DNA of 64,000 nt from Alphaproteobacteria bacterium (lineage in GTDB: Bacteria > Pseudomonadota > Alphaproteobacteria > MPNO01), in NCBI GenBank assembly GCA_965248835.1, contig CBDFLJ010000002.1, positions 2,368,001-2,432,000 of the forward strand. Reading direction: 5' to 3'. A model generated the notes under the pieces. That model had not been told where the DNA came from, made no database searches, and worked only from the letters and a program-made list of their open reading frames with translations. Numbering within the stretch: position 1 is the first letter of the stretch; each line of letters begins with the position of its first letter. The translations under genes and the position numbers were made by a program. Shown piece by piece: positions 6,133 through 37,152 of this stretch.

Positions 6133-7311
6133 TCATGAGCTGTCCTGCCAGAAGGATGGCCGGCATGGCTCCGGCCGGGGCAGGATGGTGAGGATGATCA
6201 TGGTGCCGTTGCAGCACGGGCAGCGGTCGGGCGGGTGAGCCGGGACGGTGTCCCTGGCCTGCTCGGCGGCCGGTTGCGGTGGCGGGGCGTCGAGCAGTTT
6301 GCGGCAAAGCGCGAGCTTCGCCGCGCGGTGTCCGTTGGCGAGGAAGCCGTAGTGGCGGATGCGATGGAAGCCGTCCGGCAGGGTGTGCAGTAGAAAGCGG
6401 CGGATGAACTCGTCTGCGTCCAGGGTCATGACCTTCGTCTTGCCATGGTGGCGATAGTCCTTCCAGCGGAAGGCGACCTCGTCATCGGTTACGCCGACCA
6501 ACCGGGAGTTGGCGATCGCGACCCGATGGGTGTAGCGGCCGAGATAGGCGAAGACCTGCTCGGGGCCGCCGAAGGGCGGCTTGGCGTATACGACCCATTC
6601 GAGGCGACGCAACTCGCGGAGGCGGCTAATGAAGGCCTCAGGATCCGCGAGCCCGGCGAGCGCGCCAAAGAAGCCCAGACCGCCGGCCTCGAAGGCGGCG
6701 TGCAGTGCGTCGAGGAACAGGCGGCGGAAGAGGCGCGAGAGCACGCGGACCGGCAGGAAGAACCCCGGCCGGCACGGCACCCAGCGCGAGCCATCTGGAG
6801 ATGGGCCGCCGCCCGGCACGACGCAATGGACATGCGGATGATGGTGCAGGGTCTGGCCCCAGGTATGGAGCACGGCGACGAGGCCGATCTCGGCGCCGAG
6901 ATGCTTCGGGTCGGCGGCGATCCTGCGCAGCGTCTCGGCGGCGGTTCGGAACAGGACGGCGTAGACCGTCTCCTTGTTCTGGAAGGCGATCTCGGCCACC
7001 GGTGCGGGCAGCGTGAACACGACGTGGAAGTACGGCGCCGCCAGCAGCTCGGCCTGCCGGGCCTCGAGCCATGCGGCACGCGCCTGTCCCTGGCACTTCG
7101 GACAGTGCCGGTTGCGGCAGGAGTTATAGGAATGACGTATGAGGCCGCAATCGGAGCAGAACTCGGTGTGGCCGCCCAGCGCCGCCGTCCGGCACAGCGC
7201 GATGGCGCTCATCACCCGCCGCTCGACGCGGCCCAAATGACCATCGTGCGCGCGGCGATAGGCGTCGCCGTGGCGGCGCAAGACGTCCGCCACTTCTAGA
7301 CCGGCCGACAT
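6133..7311 (-). CDS. IS91-family transposase
   Basis: Zn finger YNSCRNRHCPKC, HPHVH (HUH), YLGRY (Y2), RIRHYG. Confidence 0.95.
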   Translation of the reverse strand: MSAGLEVADVLRRHGDAYRRAHDGHLGRVERRVMSAIALCRTAALGGHTEFCSDCGLIRHSYNSCRNRHCPKCQGQARAAWLEARQAELLAAPYFHVVFTLPAPVAEIAFQNKETVYAVLFRTAAETLRRIAADPKHLGAEIGLVAVLHTWGQTLHHHPHVHCVVPGGGPSPDGSRWVPCRPGFFLPVRVLSRLFRRLFLDALHAAFEAGGLGFFGALAGLADPEAFISRLRELRRLEWVVYAKPPFGGPEQVFAYLGRYTHRVAIANSRLVGVTDDEVAFRWKDYRHHGKTKVMTLDADEFIRRFLLHTLPDGFHRIRHYGFLANGHRAAKLALCRKLLDAPPPQPAAEQARDTVPAHPPDRCPCCNGTMIILTILPRPEPCRPSFWQDSS

Positions 7312-13424: not shown

Positions 13425-13880
13425 ATGGCGGACGAGTTCGCCGTCGCCGGTGGCATCCGAGGCGAGGCGGTGCCGCTGATCAAGTACGAGACCGCTGACA
13501 TCGAGGTGCCGGCAACGGCTTAGATCGTCATCGAGGGCGAGATCCTGATCGACGGGCTCGACTCCGAGGGACCGTTCGGCGAGTTCTCCGGCTACATGGC
13601 CGGCGGGCGTGCCGGCCCGGTGTACAAGGCGACCTGCATCACCCACCGCAACGACCAGATCCTGCTCGGCAGCATCAGCCGGTTCCCGCCGAGCGAATCA
13701 TCGTTGATCAAGCGCGCGCTGCTGGAGGCCGGCCTTAAGAAGCACTTGCGCGACAGCTTCAACATCTCCGATATCTCGCTGCCGCTGATGGCGCACCTGC
13801 GGTCCGTCGCCGAGGACTGGGACGCCTGCGGCCTGCCCCCGCTGGACGAGCTCAAGCTGCCGCGGGGGGTTAAAGCATGA
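13425..13880 (+). pseudogene. UbiD-family decarboxylase remnant
   Basis: EVPATA*IVIEGEI...EGPFGEFSGY...CITHRND; in-frame TAG at 13521; large deletions. Confidence 0.85.
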
Positions 13881-14540
13881 TCCATTTAGCCTGCATTTCC
13901 CAAGTGAACGTCGTCTCTGGACGTTCTGGGCACCGATTCTATGATCTGTATCACACGGTTAGGTCGAATGGGGGCGGCTCGGATGCGGAACCCGGAGGGT
14001 GAATCGGATCGGCAGCCTCTGCGCCCGATTTTCGACCGCCGTTTGAAGCTTGAGTTTCACGGATCGCGGGTGACCTCCGACGCCGGTCTTCTTGCCTATC
14101 GCGAACTCGACGACGCCCTCGGACTGACTGCAATGGCGGGCGAAGTTCTCGCCGACAGCCGGACCGGCAGGAACGGCTGGCACGGCATCGTCGGTCTGCT
14201 TCGCCAGTCCGTCTGTGGTCGCCTCGCCGGGTACGAGGGCGTGAATGACGCCGACCGGCTCGGGCGCGATCCTGCGATGCGCTGGATCGGCGGCGGCAAG
14301 GTCGTCGAGCGCGGCGGTGCCTCGACCAGTCAGATGGGGAGATTCGAGACCACACTGCTGGCGACCGAGGAGAACCTCGCTGCCCTGGCGGATCTGTCGG
14401 GCGTTTGGATCGATCGGGTTCATGCGCGGAAGCTGCCGAGAATGATCGTTCTCGACATGGACAGCTCCGTCAGCCCGACCCACGGCGAGCGGGAAGGCAC
14501 GTCCTATAACGGCCATTTCGGCTGCACCTGCTATCATCCC

Positions 14541-14563
14541 CTTGATCCGCTTCGCGGCTAAAG
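14541..14563. repeat. 23-nt hairpin insertion, copy A
   Basis: CTTGATCCGCTTCGCGGCTAAAG. Confidence 0.9.
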
Positions 14564-14957
14564 CGTCTTCAACCAGTTCGGCGACCTGGAGCGCTGCACC
14601 CTTCGTCCCGGCAACGTGCACAGCGCCCACGAATGGCGCGACGTGCTGGAGCCGGTTGTCGCCCGGTATCGGGATCGGAAGCTGCGGCGTTATTTCCGAG
14701 GCGATGCGGCGTTTGCATTGCCGGGGATATACGAGTTTCTCGAGGCCGAGGGCTTCAGGTATGCGATCCGGCTTCCGGCCAACAAGGTGCTCCAGGACAG
14801 CATCGCGCATATGCTCAAGCGCCCCGTCGGCCGGCCACCGAACGATGTGCGCCGGTATCACGCAAACTTCAGCTATCAGGCTGCCAGTTGGACGAAGCCC
14901 CGGCAGGTCGTCGCCAAGGTCGAGTGGCATCCGGCCGAGCTGTACCCGCGTGTCGGG

Positions 14958-14980
14958 CTTGATCCGCTTCGCGGCTCAAG
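14958..14980. repeat. 23-nt hairpin insertion, copy B
   Basis: CTTGATCCGCTTCGCGGCTCAAG (22/23 identical to copy A). Confidence 0.9.
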
Positions 14981-15580
14981 CGTGACCAACCTGAGCCGTC
15001 CCGCCGAGCGCGTGGTCGGATTCTACAATCAGCGCGGCACGGCCGAGCAGTACATCAAGGAGGGAAAGAACGCCATCAAGTGGACACGCCTGTCGTGCCA
15101 GAAGTTCCGCAACAATGAGGTCCGGCTCCAGCTTCACGCGCTGGCCGACAACCTCGGCAACTTCATGCGAACTCTGGCATTACCCGAGGCGGTCGAGCAA
15201 TGGTCGCTGACGACGCTGCGGGAGAAGCTCATCAAGATCGGGGCGAAGATCGTCCGCCACGGCCGCTACGTCGTGTTCCAGATGGCCGAGGTCGCGATCC
15301 CGCGTGAGCTGTTCGCTGACATCCTGCGCCGTATCGACCGGCTCAGACCCAAGCCAGCTCCGGCATGAGCGACCGCACCCCGTTCCTTCGCGTCGCCGCC
15401 GACAGGATCGGTGCGCCCGGATCACCGGCAAAAAAGCCATTCCGCGCCACCAACGCCGCCAATTGGTCCTCAATCATCCGCATCGACTCGAAGACGGACG
15501 TCATTCGAAGGCCGATTGCACATCGAGCGGTTTCGAGTCACGTTCAACGGGCTAGGAAGGTTCCATATGGGGAATCCCGG

Positions 15581-15924
15581 ATTACGCCAAACACGGCTAC
15601 TACCCGATCATGCACCTGTTCGCGTTCAGGCGTGCGCTGATCGAGCAACATCCCTGGCTCGCCCGCGCACTGATGGATATGTGGGAGGACGCCAAGACCC
15701 AGGCACGGGCGTTCTACGAGGATCCGGGCTATGCGAGCCTCGCATTCGCCCGCAACGACTTCGAGGACCAGGTCGCTGCCATGGGGCCGGATCCCTGGCC
15801 GTCGGGCATCGCCGCCAACCGCGCGAACCTCGAACGGTTCATCTCCTATGTCCACGACCGCCGCCTGATCGAAACCCCGGTCAACGTCGACAGCCTGTTC
15901 CACGACACGACGCGGGATAGCTGA
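15581..15924 (+). pseudogene. 4,5-dihydroxyphthalate decarboxylase-like C-terminal fragment
   Basis: HGYYPIMH...HPWLA...GPDPWPSGIAANRANLE; begins at the IS end. Confidence 0.8.
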
Positions 15925-16057
15925 TCGGGGCTGAACCAGGACGGGGGCTTGACAGTTATGCGCCGCTGCCGAAAAGTCCCGGCGACGGCAAGTGATCAGG
16001 CCCGCTGCCCGGCCTGTGTCACGGTGATACCCTGGCACGGAACAAGAGGACCTGAAA

Positions 16058-17898: not shown

Positions 17899-19581
17899 CC
17901 CGGATATCCCAGATAGGAGCCGATTTCGCTGCCTACCGAAGCATGATAGTCCAGCCATTGCAGCAGGTTAGCCATGGAGGAGCGGGGATTTGGCGGTGAA
18001 CGCGACGGGTGAAGCAGAATCCGTCCCGCTGCGGCTCCAGTTTGACCGCTCGGTGAAGCTGGCGTTCTGCGGCTCTTCTATCAGTTCCGACGGTGGTCTG
18101 CTGCTTCACCGCGAACTCGATGATGCCCTTGGCCTCACCGGCATGGCGGCCGATCTCCTCGCCGATCCGCGCACCGGGAAGAACGGCCGTCACCATCTAG
18201 CGGCACTCCTGCGGCAATCGATCTTCTCTCGCCTGGCGGGATATGAAGACGTCAACGACGCGGATCGTCTTTGCCGCGATCCGGTGATGCGTCAGCTCGT
18301 TGGCGGACGGGCGGTGAAGCACGGTGCGGCCTCGGCGAGCGCCATGGGCCGGTTTGAGACGGAGATATTGACCCAGCCTGATAACCTTACTGCTCTCGCC
18401 GATCTGCCCGGCCGCTGGATTGATGCGATCCATGACAGGCGACCACCGAAGAGCATCACGCTCGACATGGACAGTTCGGAAAGCCCGGTGCACGGTAGTC
18501 AGGAGGGCTCCGCCTGGAACGGTCACTTCCAGTCGAAGTGCCTGCATCCGCTGTTCGTGTTCAACCAGTTCGGTGATCTGGAGCGGTGCTCCTTGCGTCC
18601 CGGCAACGTCCACAGCGCCGCCGGCTGGGAAGATGTGCTGCGGCCGGTTCTGGCGCGCTACTCCGCGTCTGCCCGGCAATCGATCACGCGGCGGCGGTTC
18701 CGGGCTGATGCTGCCTTTGCCATCCCGGCGTTGTTCGACCTGCTGGAAGCCGAGGGCTGGGACTACGCCATCCGAATCAAGGGCAATGCCAAGCTCCACG
18801 AGCGCATCGATTGGCTGACGAAGCGCCGGCCTGGCCGGCCGCCGAACCATGTCGTGCGCCTCTACACCAGCTTCCATTACCGGGCGAAGAGTTGGTCGAA
18901 GCCGCGCCGGGTGGTGGCCAAGGTGGAGTTCCATCCAGGCGAGCTGTTTCCGACCGTCGGCTTCATCGTCACCAACCGAGGCCTGCCCAACGAGCGGGTG
19001 CTGGCCTTCTACAACGACCGCGGCACCGCCGAGCAGCACATCAAGGAGGGCAAGTATGCGCTGAAGTGGACGCGTCTCTCCTGTATGCGCTTCGCGGCAA
19101 ACGCCGTGCGGCTCCAATTGCATGCGCTCGCCTACAACCTCGCCAACTTCCTGCGGACAGCGGCGACGTCTGAACTGATCGAGCGCTGGTCCCTCACATC
19201 CTTGCGCGAACGGCTGATCAAGACTGGCACGCGGCTCGTGCGCCACGCCCGCTATGCGGTGTTCCAGATGGCGGAGGCCGCGCTGCCCCGCTCTGTCTTC
19301 GCAGGCATACTCGGCCTCATCAACGGACTGCGGGGGCCGCCAGCCGTGACGGTGCCAGCATGATCAACGGTCATCTTCGAGCCGCGATGCGCACGGCCGG
19401 AGGCGCGAGAGGTGCGACCTGCGGGAGCCAAAATGGCTTTCCTCGCTGCGCCGAACCGCTACCGGCACGCTTTGCAGGCTCGACGTCGGCCGAACGAGGC
19501 GAAGCACAGGCATTCGTTGGCTTGATCAGCGACCCCACAAATGGCATCGTCAGTGGGAGTGTTCCATATGGGGAATGCCGG
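17899..19581 (+). mobile_element. IS1380-family element (copy 2, apparently intact)
   Basis: Ends CCCGGATATCCCAGAT / ATATGGGGAATGCCGG; flanks TAAG/CTAA. Confidence 0.9.
17990..19363 (+). CDS. IS1380 DDE transposase
   Basis: SSDGGLL, LDMDSS, HPLFVFNQFG, RADAAF, VGFIVTN, RGTAEQHIKE. Confidence 0.93.
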   Translation: MAVNATGEAESVPLRLQFDRSVKLAFCGSSISSDGGLLLHRELDDALGLTGMAADLLADPRTGKNGRHHLAALLRQSIFSRLAGYEDVNDADRLCRDPVMRQLVGGRAVKHGAASASAMGRFETEILTQPDNLTALADLPGRWIDAIHDRRPPKSITLDMDSSESPVHGSQEGSAWNGHFQSKCLHPLFVFNQFGDLERCSLRPGNVHSAAGWEDVLRPVLARYSASARQSITRRRFRADAAFAIPALFDLLEAEGWDYAIRIKGNAKLHERIDWLTKRRPGRPPNHVVRLYTSFHYRAKSWSKPRRVVAKVEFHPGELFPTVGFIVTNRGLPNERVLAFYNDRGTAEQHIKEGKYALKWTRLSCMRFAANAVRLQLHALAYNLANFLRTAATSELIERWSLTSLRERLIKTGTRLVRHARYAVFQMAEAALPRSVFAGILGLINGLRGPPAVTVPA

Positions 19582-36201: not shown

Positions 36202-37152
36202 TCAGGCCGCCAGGATCCCTTTCATGCGATCTTCCTGTTGCTGCTGTTGCGCCTGTGGGGCTTGAACGCATGCGTTCAAGGGCAAGGCGCGGAGCGGCTT
36301 GTCCATCATATCCACGGGCGGGTCGCCGCGGTATGCCTCGGCCGGGGTTCGCCCGTCCAGCGCCGCGTGCGGCCTCTCGAGGTTGTAAAAGCGGACCCAA
36401 TCACGGGTCAGGCGCCGGGCGGCGTAGCCGTCGGCGATCTCGTGGAGATAGACCGCCTCGTATTTGAGCGAGCGCCACAGCCGCTCGATGAAGATGTTGT
36501 CCATGCACCGGCCCCTGCCATCCATCGAGACCCGGATGCCGGGCGCCTGCAGGCGCCCGGTGAAGGCGAAGCTGGTGAACTGGCTGCCTTGGTCGGTGTT
36601 GAATATCTCCGGCCTGCCGTATCGACCCAGGGCCTCGTCGAGCGTGTCTGTACAGAAGCCCGCGTCCAGCGTGTTCGACAGCCGCCAGGCCAGGACGTAC
36701 CGGCTCGCCCAGTCCATGATCGCCACGAGGTAAAGGAAGCCACGCTGCACCGGGATGTAGGTGATATCGGCGCACCAGACATGGTTCGGCCGCTCGATCG
36801 CCAGGCCCCGCAGCAGATATGGGTAAACCCGGTGCTCGGGGTGCGGCGCGCTGGTCCGCGGCGCCCGCCAGATCGCCTGAAGCCCCATCAGGCGCATCAG
36901 CCGTGCGGCCCGCCGGCGCCCGATACGCACGCCCTCGCGGCGCAGGTGAAGCACCATCCGGCGGGCGCCGTAAAACGGGTACTTCAGGAACAGCTCGTCG
37001 ATCCGCCGCATCAACGCCAGCGTCTCGACGCTCTCCCCCTTCGGCTCGTAGTAGAGCGAGGAGCGCGCGATCGACAGCAGGCGGCATTGCCGGCTCAGGC
37101 TCAGCGCCGGGTGATCACGCACCACCATCGCGCGCCGCTCCGTCCGGCTCAT
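36202..37152 (-). CDS. IS3 transposase OrfB (DDE)
   Basis: WCADITY, NTDQGSQF, DNIFIERLWRSLKYE. Confidence 0.93.
   Translation of the reverse strand: MSRTERRAMVVRDHPALSLSRQCRLLSIARSSLYYEPKGESVETLALMRRIDELFLKYPFYGARRMVLHLRREGVRIGRRRAARLMRLMGLQAIWRAPRTSAPHPEHRVYPYLLRGLAIERPNHVWCADITYIPVQRGFLYLVAIMDWASRYVLAWRLSNTLDAGFCTDTLDEALGRYGRPEIFNTDQGSQFTSFAFTGRLQAPGIRVSMDGRGRCMDNIFIERLWRSLKYEAVYLHEIADGYAARRLTRDWVRFYNLERPHAALDGRTPAEAYRGDPPVDMMDKPLRALPLNACVQAPQAQQQQQEDRMKGILAA
36261..36280. repeat. Perfect 20-nt palindrome with CTTGA/TCAAG ends inside OrfB tail
   Basis: CTTGAACGCATGCGTTCAAG. Confidence 0.9.

Follow-up and report, generated by a model that had tools for sequence, protein, structure and literature searches.

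The Rickettsia palindromic element RPE-1, of approximately 100–150 nucleotides (nt), enters coding sequences in frame and is tolerated there, its hosts being housekeeping genes. The small dispersed repeats of cyanobacteria, which Elhai and coworkers reportedly described in 2008, are said to be hairpins of 21–27 nt nested in other repeats or in homologous sequence; to our knowledge, no enzyme has been assigned to them. Alphaproteobacteria contain CGTC-tagged repetitive extragenic palindromes (REPs), including RPE-4 and RPE-6 of Rickettsia, which have no dedicated transposase, lie sometimes within genes, and sometimes occur twice in one gene (Di Nocera et al. 2013, PMC3733652). They are described as having the CGTC tag, a stem of 8–9 base pairs (bp) with A/T as the first two pairs, a loop of 4–5 nt, and a CCA tail, and the hosts named for them there are repair and RNA-related genes, not transposase genes (PMC3733652). 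Here we describe a 23-nt hairpin that is present twice in the transposase gene of an insertion sequence (IS) of the IS1380 family. The element lies in a 64,000-nt stretch (the window) of contig CBDFLJ010000002.1 from an Alphaproteobacteria bacterium (assembly GCA_965248835.1). The 23-mer corresponds to the apical core of larger palindromic repeats, a family that resembles REPs and the hairpin-forming REP doublets (REPINs) and reaches 15–120 copies in some alphaproteobacterial genomes of patchy distribution, most of which are labelled Acetobacteraceae or Alphaproteobacteria. Probably, this core is a small non-autonomous insertion module, which is pasted by replacement and is carried here as a passenger of IS1380.

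The IS1380-family element (copy 1) is located on the forward strand at 13887–15584, with approximate ends, and aligns with its paralogs from about 13890 to 15580. Its conserved ends, as read from the sequence, are ...GCATTTCCCAAGTGA and GGGGAATCCCGGATTA. Translation and Pfam revealed a DDE_Tnp_1_4 transposase frame at 13941–15368 (forward strand). The segment 13941–14540 matched DDE_Tnp_1_4 with an E value of 5.2e-45, residues 29–200 corresponding to profile positions 3–171, and the match stops exactly at the first hairpin; homologues of the protein are annotated as PF13701, "IS1380 family transposase". Both hairpins are on the forward strand. Hairpin 1 (CTTGATCCGCTTCGCGGCTAAAG, 14541–14563) stands in place of approximately 3–5 nt of ...CCC CTG TTC GTC..., and hairpin 2 (CTTGATCCGCTTCGCGGCTCAAG, 14958–14980) in place of TTCAT/TTCGT of GGG TTC RTY GTS, each with a net gain of 18 nt. 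Searched with up to three mismatches, the pattern CTTGATCCGCTTCGCGGCT(A/C)AAG matched the window twice, and none of 100 dinucleotide shuffles gave a match. Site 1 reads HPLDPLRG*SVFNQFG and site 2 VGLDPLRGSSVTN, hairpin 2 being translated as LDPLRGSS, whereas the intact IS1380 paralog at 17990–19363 (forward strand), which is empty at both sites and served as the comparison allele, reads HPLFVFNQFG and VGFIVTN. In DNA alignments, empty IS1380 copies have an 18-nt gap at either site. The nearest full-length relative in the genome (C2:1074914–1076660, 81% identical) is likewise empty at sites 1 and 2, and a partial relative of 84% identity is empty at site 2. Search, translation, and alignments thus confirmed what a sequence-only reading of this DNA had put forward, namely two in-frame copies that add 18 nt each, the residues of the paralog, and a single-base difference that creates the sole internal stop of the frame, which proved to be a C-to-A change resulting in TAA in hairpin 1. 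The fold drawn in that reading was reproduced for hairpin 2 as single-stranded DNA (−10.8 kcal/mol, z −3.7; 2 of 200 shuffles were equally good) but not for hairpin 1 (−3.6 kcal/mol, z −0.5), in which the outer stem is lost as a result of the C-to-A change.

A contig derived from a public run spans 14828–14981, including hairpin 2, with zero differences. Among the contigs listed for four runs of one sample, none bridges hairpin 1, and the loose ends in these runs are empty-site paralogs. One low-depth contig in each of the four runs joins 14530 to 14981 and omits 450 nt, starting shortly ahead of hairpin 1 and ending shortly past hairpin 2; this joint may represent a deletion variant or another paralog. 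Copy 1 had no match in the plasmid collection (megablast), and Rfam gave nothing at gathering score within 13500–16000.

To see the distribution of the block in IS1380, we scored site 2 in the 120 homologues that best matched the 250 C-terminal residues. Ten of them contain the block (eight exact LDPLRGSS, one LDPLLGSS, one LDPFHGSS), and the other 110 are empty, nearly all reading VGFI or VGFV. The filled protein P0004 and the empty protein P0032 agree at 276 of 290 aligned positions; their sole gap is FI versus LDPLRGSS, and the block accounts for 8 of the 14 differences. In a tree calculated without the insert columns, the carriers need six changes, at least four of them forced by well-supported branches, and such a low number was reached in none of 500 label shuffles. 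Site 1 is filled in another genome as well (L047), where the profile match ends at position 171 as it does in the window. All 20 IS1380 loci from the family of genome G001 were empty and at most 79% identical, and yielded no close DNA pair for site 2. At locus L066, a deletion from hairpin to hairpin was considered and rejected, as its left flank is a normal site-2 flank and the deletion lies farther upstream. We conclude that the block is not native to IS1380.

When one genome per species was scanned for exact 23-mers, at least 116 stretches with 119 exact copies were obtained, mostly from records labelled Acetobacteraceae, Rhodospirillales, or Alphaproteobacteria. Their context was sorted by flank motifs and by reading of the flanks; exact complementary runs were unsuited as a classifier for nested palindromes, re-paired flanks giving runs of at least 7 in 14 of 119 cases. 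Among the 119 copies listed, 69 are enclosed by a C-rich arm and a matching G-rich arm and thus form a nested palindrome, 18 have one such arm, 22 have transposase-type flanks, and 10 fall into other contexts. At up to two mismatches, five genomes hold 120, 58, 17, 9, and 19 copies, and the reversed-pattern control gave 0. The dispersal typical of REPs is evident in four of them (120, 58, 17, and 19 copies) and in two further genomes with 23 and 15 exact copies. In the five genomes searched with mismatches, the variants of the stem are compensatory (CTTGG..CCAAG, GTTGA..TCAAC, and CTCGA..TCGAG), and many copies form inverted doublets 80–115 nt apart, as seen in G001 and G002. Within one family, 9 of 101 sampled genomes contain any copy, and three are rich in them, with 99, 23, and 15 exact copies (reversed control, 0).

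The outer unit of these repeats is found with and without the core, as in GAGGG/23-mer/GCTGGGG versus GAGGG/AGGGG/GCTGGGG and in GCGGG/23-mer/GTCGAGG versus GCGGG/AGAG/GTTGAGG; coreless units carry a filler of 4–5 nt at the place of the core. On the G112 chromosome, all 21 copies examined (23 listed) reside in one unit, in which three consecutive hairpins lie within an outer stem. This unit (L197–L216) has about 85 nt, an outer stem of CCCTCACCC/GGGAGAGG, and the 23-mer as the middle hairpin, giving it a cloverleaf-like appearance. Compared with Rfam, the repeat units gave sub-threshold matches to microRNA-type hairpins and none at gathering score. The longest flanking open reading frames of eight loci (L111, L115, L086, L092, L085, L065, L072, and L119) had no Pfam match, and these loci look intergenic. 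At L111, a partial core, CTTGGTCCGCTTCGCGGC, directly precedes the full core, as if one core had entered the arm of another. The exact 23-mer was also seen in two actinobacterial genomes, with records labelled Streptomyces (L046 and L076), upstream of the same histidine-kinase-type gene, with a partial second copy 10 nt upstream in L076.

The genome of the window (4.89 Mb, 2 contigs) presents a different picture. At up to two mismatches it contains five copies (reversed-pattern control, 0), all of them within IS1380 elements and none free. The three copies outside the window share the site-2 junction and belong to IS1380 copies 73–78% identical to copy 1. Nineteen further genomes of this family lacked the 23-mer altogether. 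As all five copies reside in IS1380 and neither the genome nor the family has free ones, the hairpins are imported passengers here. The notion of a very small mobile palindrome from the sequence-only reading is upheld as far as mobility by replacement is concerned but not as an activity in this genome. The three outside copies and one fragment contain a second hairpin, CTTGAGCGGCAAAGCCGATCAAG, approximately 265 nt downstream, which defines a third IS1380 site (LREK/LIKIGAK; C1:28300, C2:674498, C2:854000, and C2:1023051). Its outer arms are those of the 23-mer, its inner stem is altered on both sides, and it adds 19 nt and a TGA. CTTGAGCGGCAAAGCCGATCAAG was absent from all 301 genomes searched in the family of G001 and occurred in nine metagenome stretches (L178–L186), of which six are IS1380 site 3, one is an IS3-type orfB, read by eye as YG[LERQSRSR]PICRVL, and two lie elsewhere. 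With 0 of 301 genomes and these nine metagenome stretches only, CTTGAGCGGCAAAGCCGATCAAG was rejected as a repeat core. One IS1380 copy with hairpins at sites 2 and 3 (C2:1022700–1025050, reverse strand) has its N-terminal half split by several hundred nt of unrelated sequence.

A perfect 20-nt palindrome with CTTGA/TCAAG arms, CTTGAACGCATGCGTTCAAG, is located in the window at 36261–36280 and encodes LNACVQ near the C-terminus of an IS3-family orfB (36202–37152, reverse strand; Pfam HTH_21, rve, and rve_3). The element is 1.36 kb long and present in seven copies. A relative of 74.7% identity carries the palindrome with one mismatch, and an 80%-identical fragment (C2:503667) lacks it and reads GGGG/ATGTG/GGC instead, the filled copies being 15 nt longer.

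The bare core was found in genes that we assign to six IS families: IS1380, IS630-type, IS256, IS3, IS21, and IS66. Seven IS630-type loci match the DDE_3 profile up to position 118 and lose the match exactly at the hairpin; in an eighth, it stops at 116. Another locus, which we took to be IS630-type by eye, had no Pfam match. In the IstB protein of IS21 (Pfam IstB_IS21), the match resumes at profile position 163 after the hairpin, a site that we read as Walker B. Pfam also supported an IS3 orfB (HTH_21), IS1380 at site 2, and IS256 (Transposase_mut), the last at two different sites. The match for the IS66 host (L042) was weak and below the cut-off, and one helix-turn-helix host was assigned by reading only. 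The same position recurs in divergent members of an IS family. In the IS256 element with two hairpins, one hairpin causes a frameshift and the other gives a TGA. Nevertheless, three copies with 99–100% identity occupy different loci of G006, so that a doubly broken transposase gene still multiplied; G006 has no hairpin outside this IS256. In L142 (G006:C12:131500–135500), the hairpins are at 1984–2006 in direct orientation and, as a reverse-oriented variant, at approximately 2060–2085. Genomes with IS-embedded copies have 1–4 copies in all. These recurring positions and the nesting of the 23-mer in larger REPIN-like repeats add to what the sequence-only reading had described.

The comparison of filled and empty forms yielded an entry rule. 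At every filled/empty pair that we built, 4–5 nt are replaced and the target is not duplicated, as had been proposed from the window (approximately 5 nt). At IS1380 site 2, GGG/TTCAT/CGT is converted to GGG/23-mer/CGT (+18 nt), and site 1 lost 3–5 nt (+18). In the IS630-type genes, TGAAC of GACC/TGAAC/CC is replaced by the 23-mer (+18, and +19 in a second lineage), in the IS3 palindrome ATGTG of GGGG/ATGTG/GGC by the 20-mer (+15), and in the repeat units the core stands against AGGGG or AGAG (+18 or +19). The empty forms of site 3, IS256, and L100 (an IS3 case) were deduced from conserved motifs, with 4 nt lost and a gain of 19 nt. By our reading of about 10 sites, the hairpins are present in both orientations relative to the flanks, and in most cases GG(G) adjoins one end.

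How do these hairpins relate to the known systems? Small palindromic mobile repeats have been described before; what is unusual here is the recurrence in transposase genes and the apparent bias toward them. With REPs and REPINs as described by Bertels and Rainey (2011, PMC3116915), the family shares the short imperfect palindrome, the tens to more than 100 copies, the mostly intergenic location, the compensatory stem variants, the inverted doublets 80–115 nt apart, and the patchy distribution across genomes. Unlike REPs as characterized there, it has no GTAG tag, the unit starting with CTTG, ending with CAAG, and being flanked by GAC or AAC and CCC. Nor was a REP-associated tyrosine transposase (RAYT) flanked by repeats detected in the genomes searched with PF01797 (see below). 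Moreover, it is the apex of the unit, and not the arms, that is conserved, and the bare core occurs alone inside genes. With the CGTC REPs, it has in common the lack of a dedicated transposase, the intragenic location, and the occurrence twice in one gene; it differs in its 5+4 bp stem with one mismatch, which begins with C-G and then T-A, in its 3-nt loop, in the lack of a CCA tail, and in the missing CGTC tag of the repeat units. RPE-1 is likewise a palindromic repeat that enters coding sequence in frame, but our hairpin has 23 nt, often breaks the frame, and has transposase genes as hosts. The cyanobacterial small dispersed repeats are the closest concept, although phylum and sequence are different. 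Miniature inverted-repeat transposable elements are also small, non-autonomous, and equipped with inverted ends; here, however, 4–5 nt of the target are lost instead of duplicated, and 23 nt is far below their size. The insertion of IS elements into REPs, as reported by Tobes and Pareja (2006), shows the same link between REP hairpin and IS in reverse topology: there the IS splits the REP, whereas here the whole hairpin is in the IS gene. The hairpin family works like REPs/REPINs, intragenic CGTC REPs, and RPEs but fails the defining tags and the RAYT link. A literature search returned no paper containing the core strings or the LDPLRG peptide.

According to our proposal, a defined unit of 23 nt (20 nt in the relative) would be inserted in both orientations, mostly next to GG(G), and the core would survive in three settings: within other palindromes, in intergenic DNA, and in transposase genes. 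IS elements with a hairpin would keep multiplying and move between genomes. The IS1380 copy of the window would have acquired both hairpins while in a donor lineage and then carried them into a genome without free copies, where hairpin 1 presumably mutated later to a stop, leaving a dead gene. As to the reaction, a structure-specific enzyme acting on single-stranded DNA may cut at the base of the stem and swap the unit into one strand, and the swapped strand would become fixed at the next replication. The proposal builds on features that we count as observed, that is, the boundaries of the unit, the replaced bases, the lack of a duplication, the two orientations, the recurrence, the patchy distribution, and the passenger status. 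Two candidates for the inserting enzyme were tested and rejected. The RAYT profile PF01797 had no match in G001, G003, G112, G047, G100, and G000; among the six repeat-rich genomes, four had no RAYT, and G002 and G005 had fragments only, with no core within those loci and no fragment adjoining a hairpin. Genes for Y2_Tnp are present in G000, G001, G002, and G005, but seven loci examined around them contained no core-like sequence at up to five mismatches, so that a by-product of IS91/Y2 rolling-circle transposition was dismissed. An IS91-family Y2 transposase gene also lies in the window at approximately 6328–6885 on the reverse strand (C2:2374328–2374885); it has two near-identical counterparts elsewhere in the genome and no hairpin core nearby.

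Several observations weigh against this proposal. No mobilizing gene was found in the searches above, and no insertion was caught happening. The empty alleles for IS630, IS256, IS3, and site 3 are relatives of 66–86% identity or were deduced from motifs, so that the replaced bases are accurate to ±1–2 nt, and some events added 19 nt, not 18. Public genomes were searched for exact 23-mers, and the boundaries and the perfect conservation are thus partly ascertained by the search; the context proportions describe a sample, the matches listed. In 8 of the 22 transposase-type cases, the IS assignment is based on the reading of flanks or on flank similarity: L012, L107, L114, L061, and L066 had no Pfam match in the frames tried, L024 had none in the single frame used, and neither L095 nor L108 had a Pfam query of its own, whereas L142, which corresponds in place to L024 in G006, did match Transposase_mut. 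IS amplification and horizontal spread alone could inflate the share of IS-embedded copies. Finally, the flank downstream of site 2 in copy 1 is identical at 23 of 23 positions to that of the 77%-identical copy C2:1025050 and at 20 of 23 to that of the nearest relative, a weak hint that some hairpins spread by conversion between IS copies rather than by fresh insertion. If conversion were the rule, one insertion per site would have been followed by short-tract gene conversion among related IS copies within one cell, helped by conserved motif sequence on either side. This would explain why the filled sites lie within the most conserved motifs, and the presence of both hairpins in all three IS256 copies of G006 is in line with it. 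A difference of three mismatches is, however, weak evidence, and over 30 nt to the left of the hairpin, the filled IS1380 copies are just 60–72% identical. The eight IS630-type carriers are widely divergent and yet have the position in common. As repeat units and unrelated IS families also contain the core, first entries are needed anyway, and we consider conversion a rather unlikely account of the pattern.

The bias toward IS genes might alternatively mean that a system recognizing these genes or their DNA intermediates directs the hairpin by preference to the catalytic motifs of transposase genes, the hairpin being a host defence or an IS parasite. All 15 CTTGA-N-TCAAG hairpins with an inner stem of at least three pairs in this genome are in IS transposase genes. 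Four IS elements have two hairpins each (copy 1 of the window, the C1:26950 type, C2:1025050, and the IS256 of G006), 22 of approximately 32 solo copies among the matches listed have transposase-type flanks, and DDE_3 position 118 and IstB profile position 163 are among the places hit. Yet no machinery was found in our searches, all copies looked at in repeat-rich genomes lie in repeat units, the sample is biased by IS copy number and horizontal transfer, some insertions keep the frame open (e.g., P0030, with 426 residues), and IS elements laden with hairpins multiplied nonetheless. Such delivery appears unlikely to us. Its widest formulation holds that CTTGA...TCAAG hairpins are ultra-small elements seeking transposase genes, as IS parasites or as a host weapon, that in at least six IS families they strike fixed positions of catalytic motifs through a strand replacement removing 4–5 nt, and that they then ride the crippled IS into new genomes; this, too, we regard as doubtful. 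The hairpins may prefer IS genes, or IS genes may simply tolerate and amplify them. Templated repair, in which a polymerase at a break or stalled fork in IS DNA would switch briefly to a repeat hairpin at a microhomology and leave a copied patch with a small deletion, accounts for the small target loss without duplication at every site and could have used the short similarities between target and core (TTCATC versus TTGATC at site 2, and CTSAAYCC versus CTCAAGCC in IS630). Similarity of 5–6 nt to part of a 23-mer is, however, expected by chance, and the same 23-nt boundaries (±1) recur at unrelated sites, flanks of the donor unit were not copied along, and one position was used repeatedly. The sharp 23-nt ends, the constant small loss, the missing duplication, the two orientations, and the reuse of sites would be better matched by a structure-specific reaction on a folded strand than by random repair; templated repair we consider quite improbable. 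Scarcely credible is a native feature of an IS1380 subfamily, such as a selected regulatory hairpin, or an assembly or adapter artefact, even though the block is in frame at both sites and 8 of 10 carrier proteins retain the exact LDPLRGSS. The 110 empty homologues and the pair P0004/P0032, which differs by the block, speak against it, as do the hairpins in other IS families and intergenic repeats, the many independent assemblies, and the read-derived contig across hairpin 2. Three objections that the sequence-only reading had raised against itself are thereby answered: close IS1380 relatives mostly lack the block (110 of 120 at site 2), unrelated loci have further copies (at least 116 stretches in other genomes), and the sequence does not derive from an adapter or a faulty assembly.

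Recognition of the hairpin explains the odd blocks of 6–8 residues (LDPLRGSS, LERQSRSR, and LNACVQ), the stops, and the frameshifts in annotated transposases, and the hairpin is a marker for tracing IS transfer between lineages. If a 23-nt hairpin is indeed pasted as a defined unit with a fixed loss of 4–5 nt, this would be a DNA insertion chemistry without a described enzyme, and it would shift the size limit of bacterial mobile DNA downward. If the recurrence across unrelated IS families holds, it would reveal a new layer in the life cycle of IS elements, that is, their decay, control, or hyperparasitism by smaller elements.

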